Below, in pieces: positions 1 through 29,663 of a stretch of 64,000 nucleotides of DNA. The stretch is from an uncultured Planctomycetia bacterium (lineage in GTDB: Bacteria; Omnitrophota; Gorgyraeia; Duberdicusellales; 4484-171), in NCBI GenBank assembly GCA_964489445.1, contig CAZAYU010000003.1:65172-129171 (forward strand). Direction: 5' to 3'. Under the pieces are notes generated by a model that was not told the DNA's origin, did no database searches, and worked only from the letters and a program-made list of their open reading frames with translations. Position 1 is the first letter of the stretch. Every line of letters starts with the position of its first letter. Both the position numbers and the translations under genes were made by a program.

Positions 1-83
1 GTTTCGGGAGGTCAAAAGAATTTATCGGCAGCCTAAAGAAGTTCTAAGCAAGGTAAAGTATATTTTAAGTAAATAAAAAATAT

Positions 84-1616
84 ATGAAAGTTACTTTTGT
101 GTATCCTGATTTAATTGGAAGTGCTAACTATGGAGGAATATCTTATTTAGGCATAGCTTCTTTGTCTAGTGTTTTAAAAAAAGAAGGATACAATGTGTCT
201 CTACTCCATGTTACGCAGCCACTTAAAAAAAATAAATTAATAAAAATATTAGAAGACGAAAAGACCGATCTTGTTGCGTTTTCTTCAACTACTCAAATGT
301 TTGGGTTTGTCCAACAATGGTCTGCGTGGATAAAAGAAGAAACAAACAAAATACCTCTAATCGTTGGCGGAATTCATCCCACCCTTTATCCTCATCAAAC
401 CCTAAAAGACAGTTGCGTTGACTTGTGTTGTATTGGTGAAGGAGAAGGAGCAATAGTAGAGGTTTGTCAGGCGCTTCAAGAAAAAACAGATGTTTCTGAA
501 ATTTCTAATCTTTGTGGTGTGTGGGAAGGGAAAACATTCTTCAACCCGCCTCGACCGCTTATTGCGAACTTAGATGATTTGCCATTTCCAGACCGTAAAA
601 TATTTAATTATCAAAAATTAGTGGATGGACGGGAAAACACGGCATTTTTTATGGCATCTCGAGGGTGTCCTTATGATTGTTCTTATTGTTGTAATCGGGC
701 TCTAAAGCTGGCTAGCAAAAATTGTAATAACTGGGTAAGATTTAGAAGTGTCGACAATGTTATTCAAGAAGTGCAACTAGAGACAAAAAATAATCCGCGT
801 ATAAAACGTATTGTTTTTTATGATGACATACTTGCTTTACGAAAAAGCTGGTTTTCTGAATTTACTAAAATGTATGCAAAAAATATTGGAATGCCTTTTA
901 GATGTAATATGCGTGCGGATATTTTAGCCAAAAAAGGAATGGCTTCTTTACTTAAGTCAGCAGGATGTTGGAACGTAGTAATTGGCTTGGAAAGTGGCAG
1001 TGATACAGTTAGGAGTAAAATACTTAAAAAAAATATCTCTGACGAACAAATAATTAAAGCAGGAAAAGAGTGTAAAATAGCAGGCATGGGATTATCAACT
1101 TATAATATGCTAGGCATTCCGGGTGAAGATTTTTCAGACATTCTCAAAACTGTAAAACTAAACGCAAAGATAAACGCTAACTTTATGTATGCTTCTATCT
1201 ACTATCCGTTTTCAAATACTGATTTATACGAAGTTTGTCGGAAAAAGAAAATGTTAACTGGAAGGACAGCAATTGACTATGTGGAAGAAACAGTATTAAA
1301 TTTTAATAAGAAAGAACGGGCAAGAATTATTTTTGTCCGGAACCATTTTCGTTTTCTGGTTAATAGCTATCGATTAATATCGAAGCTATCGGCAAAAAAG
1401 GAAAAGTATGTTCACAATATATTTGAAAAAGTTTTATATTCACACTTAACATCGTGGATGGTGTTTATTCCGGCTAACTGGATTTTTAAAAAAGTACGAC
1501 ATAGTCGTTTGTTATCGGTGATTGTTACAAGTATTAAAGCAGCTGCTCAACGAAGAAGGCAACGTGTTTTAGCCAGGAAAATCATTTCTAATGGTATGAA
1601 TATGAGGAACAGTTAA
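84..1616 (+). CDS. B12-binding radical SAM protein (class B rSAM, methyltransferase-like)
   Basis: N-terminal B12-binding-like domain, then CxxxCxxC (RGCPYDCSYCC) radical SAM core. First gene of the polysaccharide operon. Confidence 0.8.
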   Translation: MKVTFVYPDLIGSANYGGISYLGIASLSSVLKKEGYNVSLLHVTQPLKKNKLIKILEDEKTDLVAFSSTTQMFGFVQQWSAWIKEETNKIPLIVGGIHPTLYPHQTLKDSCVDLCCIGEGEGAIVEVCQALQEKTDVSEISNLCGVWEGKTFFNPPRPLIANLDDLPFPDRKIFNYQKLVDGRENTAFFMASRGCPYDCSYCCNRALKLASKNCNNWVRFRSVDNVIQEVQLETKNNPRIKRIVFYDDILALRKSWFSEFTKMYAKNIGMPFRCNMRADILAKKGMASLLKSAGCWNVVIGLESGSDTVRSKILKKNISDEQIIKAGKECKIAGMGLSTYNMLGIPGEDFSDILKTVKLNAKINANFMYASIYYPFSNTDLYEVCRKKKMLTGRTAIDYVEETVLNFNKKERARIIFVRNHFRFLVNSYRLISKLSAKKEKYVHNIFEKVLYSHLTSWMVFIPANWIFKKVRHSRLLSVIVTSIKAAAQRRRQRVLARKIISNGMNMRNS

Positions 1617-1629
1617 ATAAGACAAAGTA

Positions 1630-2862
1630 ATGATATATTCCATTAAAAAAAGCATTATAAAAGTTTTTTTTGTGATGTCCGGGATAGCTTTGTTCCATCT
1701 TGCAAATACGTTTATTTTAGCGAGAAGCCTTTCTATGGGGCAGATGGGTTTATTCCGAATTGTTTTAACTGTTGGTGAATTCATTTTTGTTGTTAGTCTA
1801 TTAGGCATAGATGCTTCATTTATTCGTTTTTTTTCTCGATATTCTCCTTCTCTTTATAGATGGAAGAGATATGTGTGTATGGCGATTGGTCTATCTGCAC
1901 TTTTGGCTTGTGGGTTAGTACTTATAGCCGGTAAATTTTATGAGTTTACTCCGCTAGTGGTTAGCGCGGTGGTTATAGCTGTGGTGTTAAGTATTACAAA
2001 CAGAGCGTTTAACTCTTTTCTTAGAGCGCAAAAATATTTTGGACAAGCTACATTCTTGGAAAGATCCAGTGTTTTAGTTTTTTTTGGCTTACTAATAATT
2101 CTTTTTGCTGTAAAAAAACTTACATTTAACAGTGCGCTTTTTTCTTATCTTTTTGCTGCTGCGGTTGCTGTTTTTTGGATTATTCGGATAAGCACGAGGA
2201 AAATTAAGTCTGGCAAGAAGGCTCTTCCATCAAGCATTTTTAAAGAAGGGTTAATATTTTTCGGAATTCTAGTCACAATAACAATAATGCTTAACGCTAA
2301 CCAGCTATTTATTGCTAAAATGGTTTCCTATGAAAGCTTGGCGGTTTACACTGTTACGCTTTCAATAATGAGGGTTTTTGAGTTGGCCGTTAATGCCTTG
2401 TATTATGTGTTTGTTCCCTCGCTTAACAATGATAAACCTATCGAAACCGGAAAAATATTTGCTTTTTTAGTAACTATTGGATTATTAATCGGAAGTTTCT
2501 ATTTTGTAGCCGGGAAGTCAATGATCCACTTTTTATTCCAAGGGAAGTATGATCAAGGGGCTGAATTGATTCCGTTTTTTGTAGGTATTGGTATTTGCCG
2601 AATGCTTTATATTTTTCCGGCTAGCATAGCTGGAGGCCGGGCTTCAAAAAAGTCGCTAAGGCGGTTTTTTTATGCTAATTGTTTAGCTGCAATTTTTGGG
2701 ATAATTTTGAATTATTTTTTTATTTTAAGAATGGGCATTAAAGGTGCTGCCCTTGCCACAATGTATACTTGGATGCTAGCCGCAATTTTTAGCTGTCTTG
2801 CGGTTAAAAAAGAGTTATTCTCTGGGGTGGTGGGGCGCTTAAAAACCGAGCACGATAAATAA
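1630..2862 (+). CDS. polysaccharide flippase, Wzx-like (MOP superfamily) polytopic membrane protein
   Basis: 410 aa with about 10–12 predicted TM helices. Located in the glycan locus next to a Wzy polymerase. Confidence 0.6.
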   Translation: MIYSIKKSIIKVFFVMSGIALFHLANTFILARSLSMGQMGLFRIVLTVGEFIFVVSLLGIDASFIRFFSRYSPSLYRWKRYVCMAIGLSALLACGLVLIAGKFYEFTPLVVSAVVIAVVLSITNRAFNSFLRAQKYFGQATFLERSSVLVFFGLLIILFAVKKLTFNSALFSYLFAAAVAVFWIIRISTRKIKSGKKALPSSIFKEGLIFFGILVTITIMLNANQLFIAKMVSYESLAVYTVTLSIMRVFELAVNALYYVFVPSLNNDKPIETGKIFAFLVTIGLLIGSFYFVAGKSMIHFLFQGKYDQGAELIPFFVGIGICRMLYIFPASIAGGRASKKSLRRFFYANCLAAIFGIILNYFFILRMGIKGAALATMYTWMLAAIFSCLAVKKELFSGVVGRLKTEHDK

Positions 2863-2943
2863 AATATTTTGTTTTTAACCTAAAGAACAATATTCTATAG
2901 GCGTAAAGTTGAAAAGGCGAAAGAAAGTGGAGAAGCTAATATT

Positions 2944-3684
2944 ATGTTACCAGGGTCTCATTCAGACATAAGATATCATTTCTTTGTTAAATTTCTAAAA
3001 AAAGAGTATTCGGAAAATCCTTTAGTTTTGGAAGTGGGTTCAGGTCCTGTAGGGATTAGTCATTATTGGAAAGGGAAAGTAGTTGGTCTGGATATTGACG
3101 TTCAGAAAAAGAAGAGTAAAAACCTTTTATTAGTAAAAGGAACAGCAATCCAGCTACCGTTTAGAGATAAGGAATTCGATTGCACGATAGCGATAGATTT
3201 CTTAGAACATATACCTCAAGGGTGCAGGAAAAAAGCTGTTTTAGAAATGATCCGAGTGACAAAGAAAGATATTGTTGTTGGAGTTCCCTGCGGGGATAAA
3301 GCAATAGAATGGGAAAACAAGGCTAGAAAAGTGTATGAAAAAAAAATAAATGAATGGAAGAGGGAAAATTTAATCAGAGCATCTTTAGTAAAACAAAGAG
3401 GGGTGTTTTTGATCGAACATGAAAATATGGGGTTGCCTTCCGAACAGTGGCTCTTAAAAATGGTTGAAGAAGCTGCTCAGGAAAGCACAGGGACTTTTAA
3501 TATTAAAGTCTCGGACAATGAAAGTCTTTGGGTTTGGTATTTTTATCTTTTAGCCGAGTTGAAGTATAATTATTTTCGTTGGCTAGCCACAGCGGCATTA
3601 ACCATGGCTATACATCCTTTTTTAAGAAAGATAAAATGGGCAGGATGTTATCGTAAAATTTTTACAATAAGAAGGGAAAAGTGA
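2944..3684 (+). CDS. class I SAM-dependent methyltransferase
   Basis: Motif I 'LEVGSGPVGIS' and an 'LDID' acidic motif, with a Methyltransf_11/25-like layout. Confidence 0.7.
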   Translation: MLPGSHSDIRYHFFVKFLKKEYSENPLVLEVGSGPVGISHYWKGKVVGLDIDVQKKKSKNLLLVKGTAIQLPFRDKEFDCTIAIDFLEHIPQGCRKKAVLEMIRVTKKDIVVGVPCGDKAIEWENKARKVYEKKINEWKRENLIRASLVKQRGVFLIEHENMGLPSEQWLLKMVEEAAQESTGTFNIKVSDNESLWVWYFYLLAELKYNYFRWLATAALTMAIHPFLRKIKWAGCYRKIFTIRREK

Positions 3685-4697
3685 CAAGAAATATTTTTTT
3701 ATCGATAGTTATCCCAGTAAAGAATGAAGAGGTAAATATAGGCAGATGCCTAACATCAGTAATAAATTGTATAAAGGACATGCAACAGGTAGAGGTTATA
3801 GTTGTAGATGCCTGTTCGCAAGATGGTACAGTAGAGCAGGCCTTAAAATTTCCGGTAAATATTATTCAGCTGGAATCATTTTGGACGCATACAGCTTCAG
3901 CAGGTAGGTATTTAGGATGTTTAAATACCTACGGAAAATATCTTTTTTTCATTGATGCGGATACGACACTTGAGTTGGAATTTTTAGAAAAAGCATTAGA
4001 ATTTTTGGAAAAAAATCCAGATAGTGGAGGAATTGCTGGTTTAGACCGGGAGATATATTTTGAGGGAAAAAAACAAGTAGGGCAAAGCGCAAACATCCAT
4101 AAAAGAGATTTGCAGGTAACCAAAGAGGTAGAGTATTTAGGAGCAGCAGCTTTATTTCGGCGAAAAGCCTTGGAAGAAGTGATGTATTTTAATCCGTATC
4201 TTTATTCACAGGAAGAACTAGACGTAGGACAGCGACTGAAAAAAAATGGGTGGAAACTGTATTCTTTTCCTCGTCCGATGAGTATTCACCGCACACATTC
4301 TCCTGAAGGGATAGAAATTTTTAGAAAACAAATAAAAAATAATCGATTTACAGGAGTTGGGCAGTTGATTCGTTTGTCATTCAGTAATGGTTTATTTTGG
4401 GGCAATATTTGGAGGTTCAAAAAGTTTTTTCTTTTTTTAGTCTTGGCGGTGAGCATGATTTTAGCTTTTGTTGTATTTTTGTTTAGCGGAAACAAACAAA
4501 TTATAGTTAGTGAGTGTAGTGTAGTGGCCATTGTGTATTTTTATTTAGTATTTAAAAAGCAAAGTTTAAAAAAAGCAGCAATTAGTTTTAGTAAGTGGAT
4601 TGTTGTTATTATGAACGTAGGTAAAGGGTTGGTAAGGTGTCCCCAAAATATTCACAGCTATCCACAAAATGTTAAAGTCATTCGAAAAGGAAATTAG
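3681..4697 (+). CDS. glycosyltransferase family 2
   Basis: N-terminal 'SIVIPVKNEE' and a 'FIDADT' DxD motif. C-terminal TM helices. GTGA overlap with the upstream gene. Confidence 0.75.
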   Translation: MTRNIFLSIVIPVKNEEVNIGRCLTSVINCIKDMQQVEVIVVDACSQDGTVEQALKFPVNIIQLESFWTHTASAGRYLGCLNTYGKYLFFIDADTTLELEFLEKALEFLEKNPDSGGIAGLDREIYFEGKKQVGQSANIHKRDLQVTKEVEYLGAAALFRRKALEEVMYFNPYLYSQEELDVGQRLKKNGWKLYSFPRPMSIHRTHSPEGIEIFRKQIKNNRFTGVGQLIRLSFSNGLFWGNIWRFKKFFLFLVLAVSMILAFVVFLFSGNKQIIVSECSVVAIVYFYLVFKKQSLKKAAISFSKWIVVIMNVGKGLVRCPQNIHSYPQNVKVIRKGN

Positions 4698-4698
4698 C

Positions 4699-6045
4699 AT
4701 GAATGTTGCTTTTGTTTGTACCGGAGAATTCGAGCCGTTTTTTTATGAGTGTGTTATTAAAAATAATTACGGCGTAGGCATCAATCCTTTTTATGTAGCG
4801 TTTTTTGCCGATACACGTGCGGCAGTAAAAAAAATTAAAAAAGAAATGTATCCTAAAGTCATAAGTTTCAATCAATACCTAAAAAAAGATTATTCAGATT
4901 GTCTGTTAGAGAAGGAAGAGCTAGAAGATGTAGTTTATTATGATTCTCTACGGCGGAGTTTTGGAAAAAATACAGAGATTAAACGACAGTTAATAAATAA
5001 AGCTGTGTACTATGAATACTTTTTCCGTAAGTTTTACTCCGATAATCATATTGAGGCGGTAGTGGTTTGGAACTATTTTCCGGTGACGGTTAATGTTGCT
5101 TGGCGAGTGGCAAAAAAATTAAAAATAAAAACCATTTTTTTTGAAAACGGGCCGCTTTCCAACACGCTAATGATTGATTCCCAAGGAGTTAATTTCCAAA
5201 GTTCTTTGGCGTTACGCAAGAAAGAGTTTTTTGAAAATCAAAAACTACCACCAAAGGGATGGAAGAAATATCTACAGAATTATCCGCAAAAAAGAACGGA
5301 GGCATACAAAAAGAATAGAGGGATCATGAATCCACTGCTTAAATTTTACTATGCTTTGTTAATGCGTAATAAAAAATACCGTAGAATATTTCCAGAATTA
5401 ACGGATGATAATATCCGGAAGTCGTTATGGAAAAAAATGTTTTCAAGAATTATAATATCAAAAAAAATTAAGCTACCCAAGAAATTTGTGTTTATTCCAT
5501 TTCAATATTCACACGATACACAAGTGCTAGTTAATTCTCCGTTTGTTGCCAATATGGAAGCGTTTTTAGATTCTTGTTATTCGGCTTTAAAAGAAGTAGA
5601 TTCCTGTTGTCGAATAGTAGTTAAAGAGCATCCTGATGATTTTTGTCGAAAAAGCTATAAAAAGCTAAGAAAAAAATATCCTGATGTTGTTTGGTTAGCA
5701 AAGTACGATATCCAAGAGCTAATAAGAAAATCCCAAGCAGTAATTACTATTAATTCTTCTGTAGGTATTGCGGCTTTGGTTGAGGAGAAGCCAGTTATTA
5801 CATTGGGGAAAAGTTTTTATAATATTGATGGTGTAGTGTATTATTCTCCAAATTTGCCTGAGCTAAGAAAAAGTATGAAGAAAGTGTTAAGCGGGGTAAT
5901 TAATAAACCGTTGATTAATAGATTTCTTTATTATTTAAGATTTGAATATTTAGCAGAAGGTAATCCACGTTATTGCACGGTAGAAAGCTTAGCGGGGGCA
6001 TGCAGAAAATTAGAAAAAATACTAATGGAGAAAAATAATGAATAA
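4699..6045 (+). CDS. putative capsule polysaccharide biosynthesis protein (Capsule_synth / KpsS-KpsC-like)
   Basis: Resembles the KpsS/KpsC-like family in its 'HPDD' and 'NSSVGIAAL..KPVITLG' segments, recalled from memory. The ATG at 4699 has an AAGGAAA RBS and lies just after the upstream stop; the track ORF starts at 4669. Confidence 0.4.
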   Translation: MNVAFVCTGEFEPFFYECVIKNNYGVGINPFYVAFFADTRAAVKKIKKEMYPKVISFNQYLKKDYSDCLLEKEELEDVVYYDSLRRSFGKNTEIKRQLINKAVYYEYFFRKFYSDNHIEAVVVWNYFPVTVNVAWRVAKKLKIKTIFFENGPLSNTLMIDSQGVNFQSSLALRKKEFFENQKLPPKGWKKYLQNYPQKRTEAYKKNRGIMNPLLKFYYALLMRNKKYRRIFPELTDDNIRKSLWKKMFSRIIISKKIKLPKKFVFIPFQYSHDTQVLVNSPFVANMEAFLDSCYSALKEVDSCCRIVVKEHPDDFCRKSYKKLRKKYPDVVWLAKYDIQELIRKSQAVITINSSVGIAALVEEKPVITLGKSFYNIDGVVYYSPNLPELRKSMKKVLSGVINKPLINRFLYYLRFEYLAEGNPRYCTVESLAGACRKLEKILMEKNNE

Positions 6046-7447
6046 AAAAATAATTTCTATGTTAGCTATTTGCGGGTTATTGGCAATTTGTGTGTCATTG
6101 TTTTCTTATTATCGGCAGGCGTATTACTTATTATTTTTTGGGATTTTGGGATCTAGCGCGTTTATAGTAAAAAAAGGAAAGATTACTATTTATGATTGGT
6201 TAATTGTACTAGTAGTAACCATACCGCTACACACATTACGAATAGGAGGGCAAACGCATTTTTTGCGGTTAACGGAAGTTGCATTTATTCCATTTTTCTT
6301 TTCTTATCTTATTAAAAAAAGAAATGATGCCGAGTCTTTTAAAATACGGAAAGAGTTTTTCTGGATATTTGCATTTTTAATCGTAAATATTTTAGCGATT
6401 TCTAAATCATTGTATCCTTTGGTTAGTATTAAAAAAGTGGCTATCCTGGGATATCTAATATTATTTTGTTATTTAGTGAGTGATATGTTTAAAACAATAA
6501 AAAAAGAAGAGTTAGTAATTAAAGCGATGATTGGTATATCCGCCTGTTCGGCAGTATTGGCGGTGTTTCAGTCATTTTTGCCTCAGCTGCATATTTTATC
6601 CACTAAGGCTTTGACTGTGATAGGTGGAATTACTATTTACCGTGCTTCTGCTGGGTGGAAAGACCCAAACTACTACGCTCTTTATTTGGGGATGAATGCG
6701 GCGCTTTGTTTATCTTTTCTAGTTTCGTCAAGAATTAAAAAAACAACTTTTTTACGAGTTTGTTTTTTTCTACAAATAGCCGGAATTATCGCCACTTTTT
6801 CTAGGATGGGTATTCTTTGCTTTATTTTTGTGTTGGTTTACATGATGTTTTCGTATAATAAACGAAAATTAGGTTGGATAATGTTAATTATAATGATGCT
6901 AAGTGGAGTGGGCATAGTGAGCTCTATTGAGAAAATTTATGAAAAATATCCACTTGCTCAAGCGTATATTTTTCGGCAACCGAAACTAGAAACATTGCAA
7001 CAATATCCACGGTTAATTTTAGTTCATCGATGGGATGCGTTTAGGGCTAATTGGAAAATGTTTTTAGATAATCCTTTTTTGGGTGTTGGTCCGTTTATGG
7101 CTATGGATAATTATGCTGAATATAGGCCGAAAGATGCGTTATGGTATACACGAGAAATGCTTGATTCGCATAATCAATATCTTCAGTTGCTTGCTGAAAA
7201 AGGAATATTTGGGTTTTTATTTTTTATTGGGTTTATTTTTTTAGTTTGGAAGAGATTAAGTAAATATATTGGGCAGAAAAAAGGGCCACAAGCTGAGGCA
7301 ATTGCTATTGGGTTAAGAGGAAGCTTGTTCGTTTACTTGGTGGCATGTTTGGTGGCTCAGACTACGCATGAAGTACAATTTTGGTTGGTTGTCGGTTTAT
7401 CGCTAGCATTATTTAATATTGGTGACGAGAAAATTAATGAGCAGTAA
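6038..7447 (+). CDS. O-antigen polymerase/ligase family protein (Wzy)
   Basis: Polytopic membrane protein with a Wzy_C signature '...HNQYLQLLAEKGIFGF'. Confidence 0.78.
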   Translation: MNKKIISMLAICGLLAICVSLFSYYRQAYYLLFFGILGSSAFIVKKGKITIYDWLIVLVVTIPLHTLRIGGQTHFLRLTEVAFIPFFFSYLIKKRNDAESFKIRKEFFWIFAFLIVNILAISKSLYPLVSIKKVAILGYLILFCYLVSDMFKTIKKEELVIKAMIGISACSAVLAVFQSFLPQLHILSTKALTVIGGITIYRASAGWKDPNYYALYLGMNAALCLSFLVSSRIKKTTFLRVCFFLQIAGIIATFSRMGILCFIFVLVYMMFSYNKRKLGWIMLIIMMLSGVGIVSSIEKIYEKYPLAQAYIFRQPKLETLQQYPRLILVHRWDAFRANWKMFLDNPFLGVGPFMAMDNYAEYRPKDALWYTREMLDSHNQYLQLLAEKGIFGFLFFIGFIFLVWKRLSKYIGQKKGPQAEAIAIGLRGSLFVYLVACLVAQTTHEVQFWLVVGLSLALFNIGDEKINEQ

Positions 7448-8591
7448 AAAAATAATATTTTTAGAGCAGTATTCTAAAGTAAGTGGTGGACAAAAAGTAT
7501 TGCTATCGGTTATTTCCGGATTGAATAAAGATTGTTATTCTCCCTTGGTTATTCTACCGGATAAGGGAGAGTTATTTGTAACTTTAAAAGAGGCAGACAT
7601 CGATGTTCAGATTCTGCCGATGGGATATTATTCTGTGGGCAAAAAAAAATTAGTGGACGTGGTAAGGTATTCTTTTCGATTGCCTTTTTTAATTTTTTTC
7701 CTTAACCAAATTATTAAGAAGGAGAAAGCGAATTTAGTTTATGCCAATGGAGCAAGAACCTTTATTTGGGGGGTTGTAGCTTGCACTCTAACTAAAACTC
7801 CGATGGTTTGGCATCTGCACAGTATTTTTTATACTAAAGCTGTAAAATGGGCGTGTATTTATTTTGGAAAGATGTGTGTTGTGAAAAAGATTATTGCGGT
7901 TTCTGATTCTGTGCGTAGGCCTTTGGCAGCGCTAGGAGAAAAAATAGAAATAATTTACAATGGAATTGATGTTAAGCATTTTTGTTCTTTATCCAGAGAT
8001 AGAGAACAGAGTTGCAAAAGAAGAAAGCTATTAATTATTGCTGGGGGGTTATTGATAGAATGGAAAAACCAAGAAGATCTAATTAAAGCTGCTGGTGTGT
8101 TTATTAAAAAAAGTAATATTCCCGTTGAATTTTTGATTGTTGGAGGCCCCCTATATAAAACCCAGGAGGGAGAAGGTTATCAGCGGAGGCTTAAGAAGCT
8201 AACCATGAGTTTGGGTTTAGAGAACGATATTATTTTTACTGGCCATATAAAGAAAATGACTGATATTTTGCAGAGGGCAGATATCTTGGTGATTACTTCT
8301 AAAATGCCAGACCCTTGCCCGTTGCTTATGCTAGAGGCCATGGCAAGCGGCTTGGCTGTGATCTCGACTAACTTTGGTGGTCCTGCTGAAATAATAGAAG
8401 ATGGGCAAGACGGGCTCCTATACTTGTCTGGTAATTACCAGCAGTTAGCTGAAAAGCTTATCTATTTAGCAAAAAAAAGCAACCGGATAAAAGAAATAGG
8501 AAAAGCAGCACGACAGAAGATTGAGAAGCAATATAGCCAAATAATATTTATAAACAAAGTAAACAAAGTACTTAATTCTCTTTTTTTATGA
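7437..8591 (+). CDS. glycosyltransferase family 4 (GT-B)
   Basis: C-terminal 'EAMASGLAVISTNFGGPAEIIEDGQDGLL' (EX7E-type motif). The ATG at 7437 is preferred over the TTG at 7419. Confidence 0.8.
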   Translation: MSSKKIIFLEQYSKVSGGQKVLLSVISGLNKDCYSPLVILPDKGELFVTLKEADIDVQILPMGYYSVGKKKLVDVVRYSFRLPFLIFFLNQIIKKEKANLVYANGARTFIWGVVACTLTKTPMVWHLHSIFYTKAVKWACIYFGKMCVVKKIIAVSDSVRRPLAALGEKIEIIYNGIDVKHFCSLSRDREQSCKRRKLLIIAGGLLIEWKNQEDLIKAAGVFIKKSNIPVEFLIVGGPLYKTQEGEGYQRRLKKLTMSLGLENDIIFTGHIKKMTDILQRADILVITSKMPDPCPLLMLEAMASGLAVISTNFGGPAEIIEDGQDGLLYLSGNYQQLAEKLIYLAKKSNRIKEIGKAARQKIEKQYSQIIFINKVNKVLNSLFL

Positions 8592-10036
8592 ATGTTTTAT
8601 TTTTAAACCCACCATTTTTTGATAATTTTTCTCGCTCTCAAAGAAGTCCAGCAGTAACAAAAAGTGGAACATTGTATTACCCGATTTGGCTTAGCCTTGC
8701 GGCAGGGGTATTGATGAAAGAGGGTTTTAACGTTTGTTTGGTTGATGCGGTTGCGCAAAGAATAAATAATAAAAATTTAATAAAAAAAATAAAAGAATTT
8801 AATCCAAAACTATTAGTTGTGGATACGTCTACGCCGAGTATTTATAACGATATTAATATTGCTGCAGAGTGTAAAAAGAATGTTCCCAACTGCTTTGTGG
8901 TCTTAGTTGGTCCACACGTTTCTGTTTTGGCAGAGGAGACCCTAGAGAATAACATGGAAATAGATGCTTTAGCGAGAGGAGAGTATGACTATACAATACG
9001 TGATTTAGCGGTGGTAATAAAGAAACGAAAAATGCTAGAGAGTGTTGAGGGTTTAAGTTTTAGGCGCGGAATGAAAATTATTCATAATCCTCAACGCTCG
9101 AAGATTCAGAATTTGGATGCTCTTCCGTTTGTTAGCCGTGTGTATAAACAATTTCTAGATGTGAAGAAATATTTTTTTGCTGCAGCTAATTATCCGGAAG
9201 TTCAAATATTCACGGCACGAGGGTGCCCGTTTAATTGTTTCTTTTGCGTTTATCCACAAGTAATGCATGGTAATGCTTATAGGGTCAGAAGTCCAGATAA
9301 TGTGGTAGAAGAATTTGATTTTATTGCTCGTAATTTTCCTAGTGTTAAAGAAGTAGTTATTGAGGATGATACCTTTACTGTTGATCAGCGTAGAGTGGAA
9401 TCTATTTGTGATAAACTCATCAAGAAAAAGAATAGGTTGTTTTGGAATGCTAACGTTCGAGCAGATTTGGACATTGGCCTAATGCGAAAGATGAAAGAGG
9501 CAGGGTGCAGATTGGTAATAACTGGGTTTGAGAGTGGGGAACAAAAAATCTTAAATAATATTGGAAAAGGAATAACAATTGAGCAATCAGAAGAATTTTT
9601 TCAAAATGCCCGAAAAGCAAAGCTATTAGTACACGCTGCGTTAATGGCTGGAAATCCTGGAGAAGATAAAAAAACGCTAGAAAAAACTTTTTCTTTGGCT
9701 AAAAAAGGGTTTCCGGATACTGTGCAATTTTTTCCGTTAATTGTTTATCCAGGAACAAAAGCGTTTCAATGGGCACAAAAGAATAATTTTCTCAAAACTG
9801 TTGATTACCAACAATGGGTAACAAAAGAAGGGCTTCACAATTGCTTGGTTGATTTACCGGATATTTCTGCGCAAGATATGGTTAATTGGTGCAATGATAG
9901 CCGGAGGAAGTATTACTTAAATTTAAAGTATATTTTTTACAAAATATTTCAGATGGTACGTTATCCTCGAGAGATTAAACGTACAGTGAAAGCAGGGTTA
10001 AAATTTAGCAAACATCTCTTAACATTTAAAAAATGA
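8588..10036 (+). CDS. B12-binding radical SAM protein (second paralog)
   Basis: B12-binding-like N-terminal domain, then 'ARGCPFNCFFCVYP' CxxxCxxC. ATGA overlap with the GT4 stop. Confidence 0.8.
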   Translation: MNVLFLNPPFFDNFSRSQRSPAVTKSGTLYYPIWLSLAAGVLMKEGFNVCLVDAVAQRINNKNLIKKIKEFNPKLLVVDTSTPSIYNDINIAAECKKNVPNCFVVLVGPHVSVLAEETLENNMEIDALARGEYDYTIRDLAVVIKKRKMLESVEGLSFRRGMKIIHNPQRSKIQNLDALPFVSRVYKQFLDVKKYFFAAANYPEVQIFTARGCPFNCFFCVYPQVMHGNAYRVRSPDNVVEEFDFIARNFPSVKEVVIEDDTFTVDQRRVESICDKLIKKKNRLFWNANVRADLDIGLMRKMKEAGCRLVITGFESGEQKILNNIGKGITIEQSEEFFQNARKAKLLVHAALMAGNPGEDKKTLEKTFSLAKKGFPDTVQFFPLIVYPGTKAFQWAQKNNFLKTVDYQQWVTKEGLHNCLVDLPDISAQDMVNWCNDSRRKYYLNLKYIFYKIFQMVRYPREIKRTVKAGLKFSKHLLTFKK

Positions 10037-11181
10037 ATAGTCTCTTTATTTTTTGGACGTCTTTGCTGTTAATAAGTTATGTCTATGGAGGGTATCTAGG
10101 GCTAAGTATTTTTTTAGGATGGTTATTTTCGAAGCCGGTTAAACAGGAAGATATATTCCCAAAGATTACCTTATTAATAGCGGCATTTAATGAACAAGGA
10201 GTTATTAAGGAAAAGCTAGACAATTCTTTAAAGCTAGATTATCCCGAAGATAAGATAGAAATAGTAGTTTGTTCGGAGTCTAGCGATCAAACGAACAAGA
10301 TAGTTAGCGAGTATGCATCGTGCGGGGTTAAGCTTTTTTCTTATCAAAAAAGACAAGGGAAAAGCGCAATGATCTATAAAACTATATCTAAAATTTCTGG
10401 AGAAATAATAGTATTTTCGGATGCGAATGCCATATATGAAGAGGATGCGCTAAAAAAAATAAGCAGGAATTTTACTGAAAAAAACATTGGGGCGGTGGTA
10501 GGTAGACTAAACATTATTAATCCGGAAGAGTCAGCGGTTAGCCAAGGGGAATCGCTATACAAAAAATATGAAGCGTTGCTACGCAAAAGCAATTCTCAAA
10601 TGAGATCGGTGCTAGGTGTTGACGGGTCAATGTTTGCGATCCGGAGAAGCGTCTATCTTCCGATAAGTGCAGACAGAGGCGATGACTTTGAATTAGCAGT
10701 AAGGATTTTAATTAAAGGTTTTGGCGTTGTGTTTGAGCCGGAAGCGATATCGTATGAGAAAGGTTCTGTTCGCGAATTTTCGGAAGTTAAAAGAAAAGTT
10801 AGGATTGTTTCTTGGTTTTTAAAAAGTTCGTTTATTTTACTTAAAGAAATGGTAGTTTCTTTTAAGGGAAAATTAATCTTTCAGCTGATTTCTCATAAAA
10901 TATTGAGGTGGTTTTCTCCGTTTTTCTTTATTTCTTTACTGGTATCGTCTTTTTTTCTTCAAAGAATTAATTTTTTTTATGGAGCAGCGTTCTATAGCCA
11001 GATTATTTTTTATTTATTCGGTTTGGTTGGTTGGGGGTTGTCTGGAAAAACTAACAGAAAAATCCCTGGCATCTTAAAGATCCCTGTATATTTTTTAGTA
11101 TTTAACTATGCTTTTATCGTCGGAGTATTCCAAGGGTTATTTAGGAAGCAGAAACCATTTTGGGAAACGTCTCAACGGTAG
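10033..11181 (+). CDS. membrane glycosyltransferase family 2
   Basis: N-terminal TM helix, a GT2 catalytic core ('IVFSDANA', D..D) and C-terminal TM helices. ATGA start overlap. Confidence 0.7.
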   Translation: MNSLFIFWTSLLLISYVYGGYLGLSIFLGWLFSKPVKQEDIFPKITLLIAAFNEQGVIKEKLDNSLKLDYPEDKIEIVVCSESSDQTNKIVSEYASCGVKLFSYQKRQGKSAMIYKTISKISGEIIVFSDANAIYEEDALKKISRNFTEKNIGAVVGRLNIINPEESAVSQGESLYKKYEALLRKSNSQMRSVLGVDGSMFAIRRSVYLPISADRGDDFELAVRILIKGFGVVFEPEAISYEKGSVREFSEVKRKVRIVSWFLKSSFILLKEMVVSFKGKLIFQLISHKILRWFSPFFFISLLVSSFFLQRINFFYGAAFYSQIIFYLFGLVGWGLSGKTNRKIPGILKIPVYFLVFNYAFIVGVFQGLFRKQKPFWETSQR

Positions 11182-11896
11182 CAGCGGGAGAAAAAAAAAT
11201 TTTAGGGAGAATAGTTCTAATAATTATTTTAAAATCAAACCAAAGTGACCAACGCTTAATATAAAAAATATCACACAAAACCCTTTTCTTAATGGCCATG
11301 TTACTTCCTCGGTATCCATTTATTTGGGCCCACCCAGTCAATCCAGGCTTAATCCTGTGGCGGAATTCGTATTCAGCGATAGATTTTTTAAATTTATTTA
11401 CAAAGTAAGGTCTTTCTGGGCGAGGCCCCACTAAGCTCATGTCTCTTTTTAGGATGTTGATCAGCTGAGGTAATTCGTCCAAATGAGAAGTACGTAACAA
11501 CTGGCCAATTCTTGTGCATTGCGAATTATCTTCGCTGGGCCACATTGGGCCAGAGCAATTTTCGCTATTTTCTGGCATAGTTCGAAACTTATATATCCAA
11601 AAAGAGCTTCCATTTTCCTTACATCTTTTTTGACGGTAGAATATTTTTCCGGGGTAGTTTATTTTTATCATTAAAGAGATTAAAATAAATAGAGGGGAGA
11701 GAAAAAACAGGCCGACAGCAGAGAGGATAATATCTATTGTTGGTTTTATGAATTTGTAAGAAAAGCCGTCGATGCTTCTGCGCGTTGTCTGGCAATTTTT
11801 CGGTTTTATCTTTGACAGACAGAAAGTAGGAGGGGAAGATTTACGAACAGATGAATATTGATCTTCGGATATTGAGTTGTATTTACAGTTTTTCAT
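11141..11896 (-). CDS. initiating sugar-phosphate transferase (bacterial sugar transferase, PglC/WbaP C-terminal-domain type)
   Basis: PF02397-type motifs 'SLVGPRPERPYFV' and 'KPGLTGWAQING'. One N-terminal membrane helix. Confidence 0.8.
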   Translation of the reverse strand: MKNCKYNSISEDQYSSVRKSSPPTFCLSKIKPKNCQTTRRSIDGFSYKFIKPTIDIILSAVGLFFLSPLFILISLMIKINYPGKIFYRQKRCKENGSSFWIYKFRTMPENSENCSGPMWPSEDNSQCTRIGQLLRTSHLDELPQLINILKRDMSLVGPRPERPYFVNKFKKSIAEYEFRHRIKPGLTGWAQINGYRGSNMAIKKRVLCDIFYIKRWSLWFDFKIIIRTILPKIFFSPAATVETFPKMVSAS

Positions 11897-11928
11897 TTAA
11901 AAATAATACTTAACTGGTGCTAAATAGA

Positions 11929-13620
11929 TTATACTTTTGAAAGGCGAGAGCAGCATTGCATAAGATAATCCTTGTCTCTCGGCTTTATTCTCGTGAATTT
12001 TATTCCAGAGTTAAATGGTCCTCGACCATTTTCCAGCAAAGAAACCTCGTGAGACCAGATTACTTTACCCTTAGCTATTATCGAGGTTCCGTTAATAGCT
12101 TGTATTTCTAAATTAAGAATATCTTTCGTGTTCGGCTTATGCTCGCTACTAAAGCTTAATCCGGAATTACTAAAGTTAAGGCTAAAAGCTTGATATTTAA
12201 TATAAGGTTCTTTTAAGTGACTATATATTATATCAGTGGATAAAGGAAATCGTAAATTGTTTCTTAATTCTTTTCTCTGTTTATTTTTCTTAGCTGATCG
12301 AGGACTATCAGGTAAACTTATTGCAAAGGAACAACCTAAAGCAAAACCGGCAAAGAGCCCTAAAAGCATGTTCAGTGGAAGGTTTGGTCTTAAGGGATGC
12401 AAAGGTATTTGCGGTGGATCAATAATTTTAATTTTTGATGTATTGTTTATTCGGGAAATCAAAATTTGTAAATTAATTTTTTTACTCAAGAGGTCTTCGT
12501 AGATTCTCCTTTGGATGCTAAGATTGCTTAACATGCTAGATAATTTTGGTTGACTGGCGAGAGTCTTTTTGAGAGTTTTTGCGTAATTGTCATTTGATTC
12601 GGAAAGCACTTTTCGTTTGCTCTCTAGTGATTTTTTTTCTAAGCTGTATGATTCAATTTCGGAATCAATTATTTTAGTTTTTTCGTTTTCCAGTGTATTT
12701 TCTATCTCACGGATATTTTTGTAGGCGTTGATTACTTCTGGATGAAAAGAGGTATATTCGGTTGTAAGATTAGACAGAGAAATTTCTGCTGCTTGCAGCT
12801 TAGATTGAAGATTGTTAATTGTTTGGTTATTTGTAATAAATGGAAGTGATAAACTATTGATGCCGCTGGTAGCCAACTCTTTGCTTACCGCAGCCGCCTT
12901 AGTATTAACTTTTTGGATTTCAGAATCAACATCAATTAAGGATGAATCAAAACTAGCAAATCTTTTTAAATTAAGCACTATCTCTGTTTCTGGCAAGATA
13001 AATACCCCTTCTTTCTTTATGTACTCTTCAAGTTCTTTTTCAGCCTCAAGAATGGTGTTCAGCGTTGATTGCATAGTGCTGTCGATTGCCAAAAAAGAAT
13101 TATTAAGGGATATTTCTTGAGCAGTATTTATTGAATTGCTATAAGCAGAAATTAACGCAGTAGACAAAGATTTTGCTAGTGAGGGATCGGTATTCTCTAT
13201 TTTTAATTCTAAGATATTAGTTTTGTTTATTGGCACAGAAGATATGGTTTTTTGGAGGCGCTCTATATCGATAAAGTCTTTATCGCTTTGTTCTAGCAAA
13301 CGGGATGCAAGAATCTTGCTTTCTAGCGCTTTAGAAATGTTTGTTCTGCTTTTAATTATTTCTGCTTGGTCTTGTAAGAATTCTTCATTTTTTTTGTACG
13401 AAGGGGTGGTTTCTGAAGGGTTAAGGCTTTCTTCTTTTAGCATTATTTTACTATTTGTCTGATAAACAGGTTTGATGAGTAGCGTAGAAATAAAAACAAC
13501 GGAAAGGGTAGTAAATGTAAGTATAAATACTATACCCTTTTTTTCCCATAGTATTTGCCCGGCAGTCTTGGGAGAGGTTTTCATTTCAAGTAATGTTAAA
13601 TCGTTATTTGTTGGTTCCAT
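11929..13620 (-). CDS. polysaccharide co-polymerase (Wzz/PCP) with C-terminal PilZ domain, no tyrosine-kinase domain
   Basis: N-terminal Wzz-like TM segment, a long coiled-coil periplasmic region, then a second TM. The cytoplasmic tail has PilZ motifs RNNLRFP (RxxxR) and NFSNSG ((D/N)xSxxG). Confidence 0.7.
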   Translation of the reverse strand: MEPTNNDLTLLEMKTSPKTAGQILWEKKGIVFILTFTTLSVVFISTLLIKPVYQTNSKIMLKEESLNPSETTPSYKKNEEFLQDQAEIIKSRTNISKALESKILASRLLEQSDKDFIDIERLQKTISSVPINKTNILELKIENTDPSLAKSLSTALISAYSNSINTAQEISLNNSFLAIDSTMQSTLNTILEAEKELEEYIKKEGVFILPETEIVLNLKRFASFDSSLIDVDSEIQKVNTKAAAVSKELATSGINSLSLPFITNNQTINNLQSKLQAAEISLSNLTTEYTSFHPEVINAYKNIREIENTLENEKTKIIDSEIESYSLEKKSLESKRKVLSESNDNYAKTLKKTLASQPKLSSMLSNLSIQRRIYEDLLSKKINLQILISRINNTSKIKIIDPPQIPLHPLRPNLPLNMLLGLFAGFALGCSFAISLPDSPRSAKKNKQRKELRNNLRFPLSTDIIYSHLKEPYIKYQAFSLNFSNSGLSFSSEHKPNTKDILNLEIQAINGTSIIAKGKVIWSHEVSLLENGRGPFNSGIKFTRIKPRDKDYLMQCCSRLSKV

Positions 13621-13628
13621 ATTAGTAT

Positions 13629-14417
13629 TTATTCTGAATCCGCTAAATTTTCAATCGCTTCTACGTGACGATAGTTTATATAGGTATCAGCAAGTGGTTT
13701 TATGTTATCGTTAAAAAAAGATAAAAAATCTTTTATTTTCCCGACAAATTTTTTAGGAACAAAAACTATATCCCCTGCTTTTAGCGGGATATCTTCCTTG
13801 AGGTCTCCCTTTGATATAACATTTAAAAGGTTAGCAGACAGTATTTTTGGGCTATCCGAGTAAGCTTTACGGATAACCAGCACACTTCTTAAATGCGCAA
13901 ATTCTTTATACCCTTCAGCTGTAGCTAAGGCTTCCAGGACAGTTAATGGTCGGGACATTCTGTATATTCCTGGACGTTTTACTTCTCCTAGTATTAGAAT
14001 TCGTTGACTGCCAAAACCACTGACAATAATGGACACTTGAGGATCTTTTATATATTTGGCTAATCTTAAAGAAACCTCGTTTTTTAATTGTTCCGGCAGC
14101 ATATCTACTGCTTTGATTTCTCCGGCAAGAGGAAGAGACAGCCAGCCATCAGGGCGAATAGTGACTTCCTTGTTCAAATCTTCATTGCGCCAAACAGATA
14201 CTTCAATTTTATCTCCAACTCCTAAAATATATTGGGCGTTATCAAATTCTGCTCCAAAAGAAGGATTCACTAGTAAAGAAAGAAAACAAGTAAGTAGAAG
14301 CAGAGTAAATTTCAAATAAAATCTTGCTAAGTAATGATTAGTGTAAAGAGTAGACGTATTGCTTAAGTTACTACTATCCAAGTGTTTACAAATATATTTT
14401 TTGTTTGTATGAGTCAT
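13629..14417 (-). CDS. polysaccharide export outer-membrane protein (Wza/OPX: Poly_export + SLBB)
   Basis: Signal peptide, then 'YILGVGDKIEVSVWRNEDL...IRPDGWLSLPLAGEIKA' Poly_export motifs. The track ORF runs to 14684 and overlaps the tRNA, so it was trimmed to the in-frame ATG at 14417. The true start is uncertain. Confidence 0.7.
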   Translation of the reverse strand: MTHTNKKYICKHLDSSNLSNTSTLYTNHYLARFYLKFTLLLLTCFLSLLVNPSFGAEFDNAQYILGVGDKIEVSVWRNEDLNKEVTIRPDGWLSLPLAGEIKAVDMLPEQLKNEVSLRLAKYIKDPQVSIIVSGFGSQRILILGEVKRPGIYRMSRPLTVLEALATAEGYKEFAHLRSVLVIRKAYSDSPKILSANLLNVISKGDLKEDIPLKAGDIVFVPKKFVGKIKDFLSFFNDNIKPLADTYINYRHVEAIENLADSE

Positions 14418-14647
14418 AATAGTGTTATTTTCCTCGAAAAAGCTTATCATTGAATATACCATATTGCTGGAGGAATAGTCAATGTAGATAGCAATAAGTT
14501 TTGTAAACGTTTCCATCAAAAAGGCCTTATTGATGGCAGATTTCTTATCAGCGTGTATTTTTTCTTGGGTATTTTTAGAGAAAATGGTATAATTAGTCCC
14601 AATATTAGCGCTATTGATTAAAGCAGAAAGCGAATATTCTCTGAAAT

Positions 14648-14721
14648 GGCGGTGTAGCTCAGCCTGGCAGAGCAAACGGCTCATACCCGTTATGTCGGTG
14701 GTTCAAGTCCACTCGCCGCCA
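14648..14721 (+). tRNA. tRNA-Met (anticodon CAT; elongator Met or Ile2-lysidine type, not initiator)
   Basis: 74-nt cloverleaf folded by hand. Acceptor stem GGCGGTG/CGCCGCC, D-arm GCTC/GAGC, anticodon stem AACGG/CCGTT with loop CTCATAC, T-arm GGTGG-TTCAAGT-CCACT. CCA is not encoded. Confidence 0.85.
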
Positions 14722-14832
14722 TTTATATTGTTAATCTAAGGCAGCGAGAAATAGACAAAAGCATTTCTTTAAGACTTAGCTTCTTGGATACAATAGCCTT
14801 CGGCAATCTCGACTGTGCCGAGATATTGTATA

Positions 14833-14851
14833 CAAGTCCACTCGCCGCCAT
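14833..14851 (+). repeat. 19-bp direct repeat of the tRNA-Met 3' end (att-like scar)
   Basis: 'caagtccactcgccgccat' is identical to 14704–14722 and lies 111 bp downstream of the tRNA. Confidence 0.6.
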
Positions 14852-14936
14852 AAAATAAAAAAATAAATAGCCACTAAGCTAAAATCATTTTCTATTATTG
14901 TAAATAAGTGATTATATTTTTTTATTCTATTCATTT

Positions 14937-25808: not shown

Positions 25809-25869
25809 ATCTTAAAAACAAATAATGTAGTCCTGAGAAGATTAAATTTTTTAAATAAAAAGAAGCAAT

Positions 25870-27573: not shown

Positions 27574-27603
27574 AGATTGATGGTAAGACGAGATGCGTAG
27601 AAT

Positions 27604-28818: not shown

Positions 28819-28853
28819 AACGATTATTTTGCTAGTGTAGAGACGAGAGAGCG

Positions 28854-28882
28854 TTGACAGAGGTATCTAGATATGTTATATC
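28854..28882 (+). promoter_or_regulatory. sigma70-like promoter (TTGACA–N16/17–TTATAT) upstream of the major pilin gene
   Basis: Consensus −35 and a near-consensus −10, about 110 nt upstream of the ATG at 28991. Confidence 0.45.
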
Positions 28883-28990
28883 TTAATGTAGATAGATTAT
28901 TCTTTATATATATTATTATACCAACAGAACAGGTTTTTAAAAAAGGAGGTAAATAAACAAAAAACCTGGCTCTAAAAAAGGAGGAAAAAA

Positions 28991-29416: not shown

Positions 29417-29443
29417 AAGAGGAACCTTCCGATGTGATAATAG

Positions 29444-29477
29444 GCCGCCTTTTGGTAAACAAAAGGCGGTTTTTTTA
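29444..29477 (+). terminator. rho-independent terminator after the pilin gene
   Basis: GGCCGCCTTTTG-gtaaa-CAAAAGGCGG stem (about 11 bp) followed by a T7 run. Confidence 0.65.
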
Positions 29478-29487
29478 TTTTTGGTTC

Positions 29488-29516
29488 ATTGACAAAGATA
29501 TGTAAGTATATTAATA
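29488..29516 (+). promoter_or_regulatory. sigma70-like promoter (TTGACA–N17–TAATAT) for the second pilin gene
   Basis: Consensus −35 immediately after the terminator. Confidence 0.4.
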
Positions 29517-29663
29517 TACCTATATTACATATTTTTATGAAATATGACTACTCACATTTTACCAGAAGAGAAATGGAAGGACTGGTTTACGAAGCTTAAC
29601 TTTTTAATGCTTAGTTATTATTATTTAATATAAGTAGTAATAACTCAACCAAAAGGAGGAGCC

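Follow-up and report, generated by a model that had tools for sequence, protein, structure and literature searches.

B12-binding-domain radical SAM enzymes, one of them HpnJ-like, in a putative Wzx/Wzy-type surface polysaccharide locus of an uncultured Omnitrophota bacterium

What might radical S-adenosylmethionine (SAM) enzymes with a B12-binding domain do in an operon for a surface polysaccharide? The question is raised by a 64,000-nucleotide stretch of DNA from an uncultured bacterium of the Omnitrophota (contig CAZAYU010000003.1, positions 65,172 to 129,171 of the forward strand; the whole stretch is called the window below), which begins with genes for such enzymes set among glycosyltransferase genes. 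Enzymes of this kind, class B radical SAM enzymes, have been described in the biosynthesis of antibiotics, cofactors, lipids, and ribosomally synthesized and post-translationally modified peptides (RiPPs). Our full-text searches (B12 radical SAM with Wzy, exopolysaccharide (EPS), O-antigen and Lawsonia) returned no paper linking them to Wzx/Wzy polysaccharide loci, and polysaccharides go unmentioned in two reviews of the cobalamin radical SAM class, one of them PMC9204698. An earlier note on this DNA had described two such enzymes in a Wzx/Wzy glycan operon and had proposed an unusually modified repeat unit, for example one with C-methylated sugars. By the criteria of sequence comparison, Wzx/Wzy glycan loci contain class B radical SAM enzymes, HpnJ-like ones among them, as conserved parts coupled to family 2 glycosyltransferase (GT2) genes. 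We read window positions 1-14684 as a probable (roughly 0.6) Wzx/Wzy-type locus for a surface polysaccharide, capsule- or EPS-like, with radical tailoring of lipid-linked sugars.

The open reading frames (ORFs) of the two proteins, here named rSAM-A and rSAM-B, were reproduced at exactly the coordinates given in the earlier note (84-1616 and 8588-10036), and the B12-binding-like N-terminus followed by CxxxCxxC was borne out in both by PF02310 and PF04055 profile searches, above the gathering score. In rSAM-A, the B12-binding domain covers residues 22-127 (7.8e-21, 74.6 bits; PF02310 cut-off 32.1) and the Radical_SAM domain residues 192-359 (3.4e-17), with the cluster motif CPYDCSYC at residues 195-202 (window 666-689). 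The corresponding matches of rSAM-B are 1.9e-14 (54.0 bits) and 1.8e-19, and its motif CPFNCFFC lies at residues 213-220 (window 9224-9247); none of the cluster cysteines varies among 32 rSAM-B orthologs. The count of two such genes proved too low, as a third one, encoding rSAM-0 (494 aa), ends at window position 76, 7 nt before the ATG at 84. The translation of window 2-76, FREVKRIYRQPKEVLSKVKYILSK followed by a stop, equals the C-terminus of the product of L039:8509-9993, and the full gene, taken from matching contigs, has B12-binding (2.2e-19, 69.9 bits) and Radical_SAM (7.8e-31) matches. The three proteins share 23-28% pairwise identity and, at this level of comparison, are different subfamilies. 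Judged by sequence, all three qualify as class B radical SAM enzymes, with cobalamin use as a prediction.

We then compared the surroundings of rSAM-B in ~85 ortholog loci, consisting of 80 metagenome loci and genome loci. Orthologs with 47-60% identity occur in Omnitrophota, Scalinduaceae (Planctomycetota), Fermentibacteraceae, Patescibacteria, Marinimicrobia, Desulfobacterales and other Thermodesulfobacteriota, and the family is present in at least six phyla. One of them (WP_011527283.1, 47%) is carried by plasmid 1 (NC_008012.1) of Lawsonia intracellularis, a pig pathogen and the one carrier in culture among those found. Across phyla, the alignment of 32 orthologs retains 64% mean column identity. 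A GT2 gene, identified with Pfam, lies directly downstream in 52 of 78 loci, 25 of these matching the GT21 model too, while the direct upstream neighbors (n=74) include GT2 in 18 loci, another radical SAM protein in 11 and GT4 in 10. Neighbors were also recounted locally with a domain-trimmed, single-round profile. A same-strand adjacent GT2 gene was found in 52 of the 64 loci that could be evaluated on both sides, and GT2 was present in every locus having at least 5 kb on each side (24/24). DUF362 proteins, some with Fer4 domains, are the upstream neighbor in 8/74 loci, and LPG_synthase_TM proteins in two; the latter are found beside hpnIJK as well, in Mycetohabitans (L046) and Burkholderia (L129).

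Relatives of rSAM-A showed a comparable setting. Homologs with 40-51% identity are located inside Wzx/Wzy clusters of Omnitrophota, Scalindua and Syntrophobacteraceae. Scalindua japonica (L127) and a Syntrophobacteraceae metagenome-assembled genome (MAG; L128) share, across two phyla, a ~17 kb block with a near-identical order of Wzy, rSAM/SPASM, Wzx, GT4, GT2, rSAM-A, GT4, rSAM/SPASM, PMT, GT2, GH26, B12-rSAM and GT2. This block contains three B12-domain and two SPASM radical SAM proteins, a PMT-type GT-C and a GH26 protein. In two Omnitrophota MAGs (L001 and L002), the gene directly after the rSAM-A homolog is GT2a-like, with 37% identity. The nearest homologs of both rSAM-A and rSAM-B are mostly found in Omnitrophota MAGs, and all close relatives come from MAGs. 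The two Omnitrophota MAGs just named keep the locus in synteny, down to the DUF212, LysM-YkuD and AccA genes that follow it. By these best matches and this synteny, the window most likely derives from an Omnitrophota genome.

The description of the radical SAM genes as co-operonic with GT2, GT4, Wzy and class I methyltransferase genes is upheld by the Pfam matches and by plus-strand gaps that are all ≤95 nt, and conservation of the association reaches far outside this one genome. From that conservation, a tailored, non-standard sugar is a reasonable inference. To this extent the proposal of an unusually modified repeat unit stands, whereas its C-methyl nature is unsupported in the form given. 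The same findings bear on whether the radical SAM enzymes are mere neighbors of glycan genes that modify membrane lipids, for instance by methylating or cyclising alkyl chains. Their relatives do include the lipid-modifying HpnR and HpnP, the ladderane protein, GrsA/B and the MoeK5-like GMGT methylase Gmm. However, the radical SAM genes are interleaved and translationally coupled with glycosyltransferase genes, the adjacency to GT2 is kept across phyla, and the operon holds no lipid-synthesis genes, so that we regard a lipid role as most improbable.

The closest curated relative of rSAM-B is HpnJ. Its match to the NCBIfam HpnJ model (TIGR03471) runs from end to end, residues 1-477 aligning on model positions 1-467 of 472, and scores 398.5 bits, well above the next families (BchE 177, PhpK 134, ApyD 123 and HpnR 119 bits) but under the equivalog cut-off of 577.6; a positive control, HpnJ of Mycetohabitans, scored 843.9 bits. 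Orthologs from Desulfobacterales, Patescibacteria and Lawsonia gave 376-453 bits on the same model, and aligning rSAM-B with HpnJ of Mycetohabitans gave 34% identity across 480 positions. Neither of the other two proteins reached the HpnJ cut-off or that of any other family: the best scores of rSAM-0 were 218.3 bits for HpnJ, 193 for BchE and 192 for ApyD, and those of rSAM-A were 130.1 for HpnJ, 121 for BchE and 114 for PhpK. A neighbor-joining tree (35 sequences, 465 columns, 100 bootstraps) recovered the rSAM-B family as monophyletic in 97/100 bootstraps, and HpnJ and the rSAM-A family each in 100/100. A clade of the rSAM-B family, HpnJ and two intermediate sequences (100/100) stood apart from BchE, Sden_1168-like proteins, rSAM-A and rSAM-0. 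Since the end-to-end match remains below the cut-off and the two groups form separate bootstrap clades, rSAM-B is, on this placement, a distinct sister subfamily of HpnJ and not HpnJ itself. By the same comparisons, rSAM-A is a separate family without a close curated relative.

The likeness to HpnJ extends to the two-domain architecture with a C-terminal helical region and to the gene order, as hpnJ lies beside hpnI, a GT2 gene, in the way the rSAM-B gene lies beside that of the membrane-anchored GT2b. Burkholderia sp. PAMC 26561 has hpnJ followed by hpnI, as in rSAM-B-GT2, and the intermediate sequences (L006, L016) also adjoin GT2 genes. GT2 coupling thus seems to characterise the HpnJ-like clade as a whole, with partner GT2s that differ. 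On the glycosyltransferase side, a BLASTP comparison of GT2b with HpnI gave nothing significant (E = 1.1), and GT2b scores 18.5 bits on the HpnI model (cut-off 310), for which reason we rejected a homologous HpnI/HpnJ pair. Pfam and NCBIfam scans and gene calls revealed no HpnK-like deacetylase in the locus, and no SHC, HpnH or other hopanoid gene was found among the scanned genes and gene calls, which cover part of the 64-kb window. According to a preprint, HpnJ annotations are confined to genomes with SHC and HpnH. Unlike HpnJ, rSAM-B occurs in a Wzx/Wzy polysaccharide locus and in lineages such as Patescibacteria and Omnitrophota.

It may be asked whether rSAM-B nevertheless performs HpnJ-type chemistry on a glycan, turning a hexosamine that is attached to a lipid or glycan, by rearrangement or ring contraction, into a carbocyclic cyclitol with an ether-like, glycosidase-resistant bond. 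HpnJ has been proposed to contract the glucosamine ring of BHT-glucosamine (BHT, bacteriohopanetetrol), a function proposed and not demonstrated in vitro (PMC9204698, a 2022 review). The full-length colinear match to the nearest curated family, the well-supported joint clade and the GT2 adjacency common to that clade all speak for such a reaction. On the other hand, the score well under the HpnJ cut-off marks a distinct subfamily, and both HpnK and an HpnI-related partner are missing from the locus. Class B enzymes at ~34% identity, moreover, often differ in reaction. Taken together, we think this alternative unlikely.

The earlier note had derived C-methylation from class membership alone, and in that form the claim does not hold, as the curated families nearest to rSAM-B, HpnJ and BchE, are non-methylases. 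It had also taken clustering with non-methylating families unrelated to glycans as a sign against itself. Half of this is what we see: rSAM-B does cluster with the non-methylating HpnJ, but HpnJ acts on a glycoside. We compared the proteins with models of the methylases HpnR, PhpK, KedN5 and Sden_1168, the RiPP C-methyltransferases and the Trp 2-C-methyltransferase. For rSAM-B, all scores were below the cut-offs (PhpK 133.6/600, HpnR 118.7/650, Sden_1168 112.2/575, rSAM_ocin_1 96.1/282 and KedN5 79.3/700), and those of rSAM-A were lower still. The C-methyltransferases of the MoeK5, GenK and Fom3 type, compared by description, have the same domain architecture as the radical SAM proteins of the window and act on sugars or small polar compounds on a lipid or nucleotide handle. 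They belong to antibiotic pathways, unlike the Wzx/Wzy polysaccharide locus seen here.

A broader version of this idea would make all B12-domain radical SAM enzymes of the locus class B methylases that use methylcobalamin to C-methylate unactivated sugar carbons, yielding C-methyl branched sugars. The PF02310 match above the gathering score in all three proteins is compatible with this, and in other Omnitrophota loci the middle radical SAM protein is nearest to the Sden_1168 methyltransferase family (339-345 bits). Against it, none of the three proteins reached the cut-off of any tested methylase model, and the top two families of rSAM-B are non-methylases. We know of no sequence signature that separates methylases from non-methylases. 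The majority of characterised cobalamin-dependent radical SAM enzymes are methylases, sugar C-methylases exist (GenK, GenD1 and MoeK5), and a sequence similarity network places HpnJ, Fom3 and MoeK5 together (PMC9204698). Weighing both sides, we entertain C-methylation by all three enzymes as a tentative possibility.

Following the family comparisons, we examined the predicted structure of rSAM-B. The AlphaFold2 model, built from the alignment of 32 orthologs (pLDDT 90.5, pTM 0.90), contains an N-terminal beta/alpha domain. Foldseek returned AprD4 (PDB 6fd2) as the best PDB match (E 1.3e-24, TM 0.74-0.81, 19% identity), with a TM score that partly reflects similar chain length. It was followed by the cobalamin enzymes TsrM, OxsB, QCMT/MgmA, CysS and TokK (E 1e-16 to 1e-23), and then by MiaB and RimO. 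AprD4 is also the best PDB sequence match for rSAM-A and rSAM-B (1.8e-13 and 1.6e-12). This protein of similar size is the radical SAM 1,2-diol dehydratase of apramycin biosynthesis, with the sugar substrate paromamine, a pseudodisaccharide; although it contains a domain related to the Rossmann fold, it binds no cobalamin (PMC12931638, a 2026 review). A Pfam B12-binding match is therefore no proof of B12 use.

One could accordingly suppose that the N-terminal Rossmann domains of the window proteins bind no cobalamin and that the enzymes are radical dehydratases resembling AprD4, or radical SAM enzymes of some other kind that works without B12, producing deoxy or keto sugars. The sequence match to AprD4, however, is limited to the radical SAM half, starting at residue 159 of rSAM-A and 193 of rSAM-B, and the NCBIfam AprD4 model aligned only from model positions 165-178 onward. 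The N-terminal domains, in contrast, align with HpnJ, BchE, PhpK, HpnR and BzaD as well as with PF02310. We consider a B12-independent reaction very unlikely, and cobalamin dependence of the three proteins remains the prediction that their N-terminal domains suggest.

Sequence alone cannot decide which reaction rSAM-B catalyzes, because HpnJ and BchE are non-methylases, the similarity network joins HpnJ with Fom3 and MoeK5, and the nearest structure is that of a sugar dehydratase. C-methylation appears possible, at somewhat under even odds. A skeletal rearrangement or ring contraction of the HpnJ type would be rather unlikely, dehydration, deoxygenation or another reaction unlikely, and a non-glycan substrate improbable.

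Overlapping start and stop codons had been claimed for the operon, and 4-nt overlaps of the ATGA type are genuine at the GT4/rSAM-B and rSAM-B/GT2b junctions. The remaining overlaps hinge on the choice of the longest ORF, gene callers placing the starts of GT2a at 3780, Wzy at 6059 and GT4 at 7437. Orthologs of GT2b, which share many contigs with those of rSAM-B, follow them with 54% identity in L001 and L002 and with 33% in L005 and L044. In L005, L042 and L044 the rSAM-B/GT2 pair is followed by a polyprenyl-phosphate glycosylphosphotransferase (PGT), and a Desulfobacterales genome (CP070769.1) carries the minimal module PilZ / rSAM-B / GT2 / PGT. Furthermore, a GT2::Bac_transf fusion, verified with Pfam, is encoded directly downstream of an rSAM-B ortholog (L080:2818-4452), and candidate GT2::PGT fusions occur downstream in two more loci (L116:2405-4018, L119:1629-2895). 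Two further candidate fusions are located upstream and on the opposite strand (L087:6197-7858, L102:1370-3031).

These neighbors also inform the choice of substrate. The main rival on this point holds that the enzymes act on nucleotide-activated sugars before transfer, making a novel donor for the adjacent GT2. The orthologs of Patescibacteria (L043) and of Lawsonia plasmid 1 (L045) indeed lie amid SIS, GHMP-kinase and NTP-transferase/HAD genes, a set that looks like a heptose nucleotide pathway. Another setting of glycan type is that of a more distant B12-domain radical SAM gene on plasmid AZO_p6 of the cultured Azospirillum lipoferum 4B (L132; 27% identity, HpnJ 171 bits), which sits between GDP-L-fucose synthase and kinase/NUDIX hydrolase genes and beside a large glycosyltransferase. 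The substrate of Fom3 is CMP-linked. The window operon and the minimal Desulfobacterales module, by contrast, are devoid of nucleotide-sugar genes, the Pfam scan and gene calls revealing no epimerase, dehydratase, aminotransferase or nucleotidyltransferase among the operon genes, and the tightest linkage is to membrane GT2 and PGT, including the fusions. We give action on nucleotide sugars little credence. Since the operon encodes no nucleotide-sugar pathway, we infer that sugar diversity would come from tailoring after glycosyl transfer. Both L043 and L045 contain GT2-DUF2304 pairs; L043 has four B12-domain radical SAM genes, and the Lawsonia locus has, in addition, genes for five class I methyltransferases and one more radical SAM protein.

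The remaining genes of the locus (Table 1), identified by Pfam and NCBIfam profile searches of the window ORF translations with curated gathering scores and cut-offs, largely agree with the Wzx/Wzy operon of the earlier note. Wzy_C, PGT, polysaccharide co-polymerase (PCP) and outer-membrane polysaccharide export (OPX) proteins are all identified by Pfam matches, and Wzx is the weakest call. The Wzy_C protein (81.3 bits, cut-off 31.7) would be the polymerase, in a family that holds ligases too. An initiating PGT is encoded, Wzz, GNVR and PilZ domains are found on one protein, and Poly_export and SLBB domains on another. The nearest NCBIfam models of the last two belong to EPS components of the XrtA/PEP-CTERM type (pepcterm_ChnLen, 87.6 bits, and pepcterm_export, 139.7 bits); no exosortase was seen among the scanned genes of the window. 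GT2a has hydrophobic segments at residues 243-292. GT2b, nearest to membrane GT2s of the PgaC/NodC type in NCBIfam, has one N-terminal and at least two C-terminal segments. The class I methyltransferase matches MftM, a mycofactocin oligosaccharide methyltransferase, weakly at best (40 bits) and is probably a sugar O-methyltransferase, whereas the Capsule_synth protein (NCBIfam KpsS 94.7 bits, cut-off 600) is by its profile a distant relative of the capsule beta-Kdo transferases.

Table 1 Features of the polysaccharide locus in window coordinates
Feature	Position	Strand	Basis and remarks
rSAM-0, 3' end (last 24 codons and stop)	1-76	+	Rest upstream of the window; first operon gene
rSAM-A, B12-binding-domain radical SAM protein, 510 aa	84-1616	+	Pfam B12-binding and Radical_SAM
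Candidate Wzx/MOP-type flippase, multi-pass membrane	1630-2862	+	Pfam Polysacc_synt 3e-6, below cut-off
Class I SAM-dependent methyltransferase	2944-3684	+	Pfam Methyltransf_11 6.1e-9
GT2a, family 2 glycosyltransferase	3681-4697	+	Pfam Glycos_transf_2 4.9e-25; C-terminal membrane segments
KpsS/KpsC-family (Capsule_synth) protein	4669-6045	+	Pfam Capsule_synth 1.9e-29
Wzy_C-family polymerase or ligase, multi-pass membrane	6038-7447	+	Pfam Wzy_C 7.8e-23; hydrophobic segments
GT4 glycosyltransferase	7419-8591	+	Pfam Glycos_transf_1 6e-32, Glyco_transf_4 7.3e-16
rSAM-B, HpnJ-like B12-binding-domain radical SAM protein, 482 aa	8588-10036	+	Pfam B12-binding and Radical_SAM; NCBIfam HpnJ
GT2b, membrane-anchored GT2	10033-11181	+	Pfam Glycos_transf_2 match; Glyco_tranf_2_3 2.2e-21
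Small polyprenyl-phosphate glycosylphosphotransferase (PGT, Bac_transf)	11141-11896	-	Pfam Bac_transf 5.8e-62; NCBIfam EPS_sugtrans (TIGR03025) 270 bits
Polysaccharide co-polymerase (Wzz/GNVR) with C-terminal PilZ	11929-13620	-	Pfam GNVR 3.1e-8, PilZ 1.6e-7, Wzz 1.8e-6
Outer-membrane polysaccharide export protein (OPX, Wza-like)	13629-14684	-	Pfam Poly_export 2.2e-21 and SLBB domains

The window locus thus has PGT, Wzy_C, GT2, GT4, PCP and OPX in common with Wzx/Wzy capsule and EPS loci of the group 1 capsule or PEP-CTERM-associated type. Unlike these, it contains three B12-domain radical SAM genes and no nucleotide-sugar genes, its Wzx match is sub-threshold, and its PCP ends in PilZ and not in a tyrosine-kinase partner domain. 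The PGT, PCP-PilZ and OPX genes form a minus-strand operon convergent with the plus-strand operon, which starts ~1.4 kb upstream of the window; a DUF192 gene and then a gap of ~170 nt precede rSAM-0. An assembly artefact, which would have undone the operon structure, is ruled out, as the same gene order recurs on independently assembled contigs (ENA ERZ2731xxxx, JGI 3300023233), two of the proteins being found on 18 and 16 contigs.

On the domain content, gene order, family placement and conserved pairing of radical SAM with GT2 genes that we observed, we base the following proposal for what the enzymes act on and where, for their use of cobalamin and for the reaction involved. The small PGT would prime undecaprenyl phosphate, and the membrane-anchored GT2b would attach the next sugar. 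rSAM-B, whose gene is translationally coupled to that of GT2b, would then functionalise an unactivated C-H of this lipid-linked sugar via a 5'-deoxyadenosyl radical at the cytoplasmic face of the membrane. Parallels, characterised or proposed, would be the action of HpnJ on the HpnI product and that of MoeK5, which methylates a lipid-linked sugar (PMC9204698). rSAM-A, linked to GT2a, together with rSAM-0 and the class I methyltransferase, may tailor other residues, and the unit would be extended by GT4, GT2a and the KpsS-like enzyme. Finally, Wzx would flip the unit, Wzy would polymerise it, and the PCP-PilZ and OPX proteins would export the polymer, possibly under the control of cyclic di-GMP (c-di-GMP). 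Such control is suggested by the PilZ domain on the PCP together with a GAF-GGDEF diguanylate cyclase gene at 22312-23625 (+), ~9 kb from the PCP-PilZ gene, and a stand-alone PilZ gene directly before the rSAM-B ortholog of the Desulfobacterales genome (L042:9530-9901).

Several observations weigh against this scheme. Only 11 of 39 loci have a PGT gene beginning in the 3 kb that follow the rSAM-B ortholog. The candidate Wzx, with ~10 hydrophobic segments, scores 27.3 bits on Polysacc_synt (cut-off 28.2) and has no NCBIfam match. At the site of the common GGxH motif, present as VGGIH in rSAM-A, rSAM-B has VGPH. The Patescibacteria and Lawsonia neighborhoods described above would fit a nucleotide-sugar substrate, the analogy with HpnI/HpnJ is confined to the radical SAM side and the gene order, and the absence of cobalamin from AprD4, the best structural match, leaves the B12 part unproven.

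A bolder generalisation is that rSAM-B and GT2, often with PGT and sometimes as a GT2::PGT fusion, form a phylum-spanning module for HpnJ-type rearrangement of a sugar on a polyprenyl-linked primer. The module ranges over Omnitrophota, Patescibacteria, Desulfobacterota (including Lawsonia intracellularis), Marinimicrobia, Fermentibacterota and anammox Planctomycetota. Surface glycans would then carry, close to their reducing end, a residue that is carbocyclic or has its C-C skeleton rearranged in another way, and the HpnJ of hopanoid synthesis would be a specialised branch of a family whose ancestral role was glycan tailoring. We regard this as a speculative and improbable extension.

Irrespective of the reaction, such enzymes recur in surface-glycan loci of many anaerobic or uncultured lineages, and one family among them is tightly coupled to GT2 and has HpnJ as its nearest relative. 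An unusual sugar in the product is plausible and need not be C-methylated. If C-methylation or ring rearrangement does take place on lipid-linked sugars, the surface glycans of these lineages would hold residues that cannot be foreseen from the set of glycosyltransferases and that may be overlooked in standard composition analysis, with a bearing on phage/host recognition, glycosidase resistance and biomarker chemistry. The three-gene Desulfobacterales module and the 27-kb Lawsonia plasmid offer small test systems for HpnJ-like chemistry. rSAM-A, rSAM-B and rSAM-0 belong among the many uncharacterised class B families.

With regard to transcription and RNA features, a promoter and terminator scan of window 1-15200 gave counts at or below shuffled expectation. 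No riboswitch, including the cobalamin riboswitch, was detected at the Rfam gathering threshold, and the sole find of the tRNA and Rfam scans was a tRNA-Met at 14647-14722 (+). This tRNA overlaps the 5' end of the longest OPX ORF, whose true start is probably further downstream; an alternative gene call gives a 296-aa product. At their 3' ends, the GT2b and PGT genes, which converge, have 41 nt in common (11141-11181).

Further along the window, an LCM/TIGR00027-type SAM-dependent methyltransferase is encoded at 14937-15788, just past the export genes. Another radical SAM protein (39910-41196, +; 428 aa) has an N-terminal region of 187 aa without Pfam match and only weak family matches, to MoaA and to TatD-linked radical SAM proteins; its gene is flanked by those of a 383-aa protein without family match (38707-39858) and a ThiI/NFACT-R_2 protein (41211-42200). 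A type IV pilus or type II secretion system (T2SS)-like cluster, with two T2SSE ATPases carrying MshEN, T2SSF, PilM and a secretin, occupies 24069-34132 and 35441-38065, and a GH94-family phosphorylase is encoded on the minus strand in or near this region.

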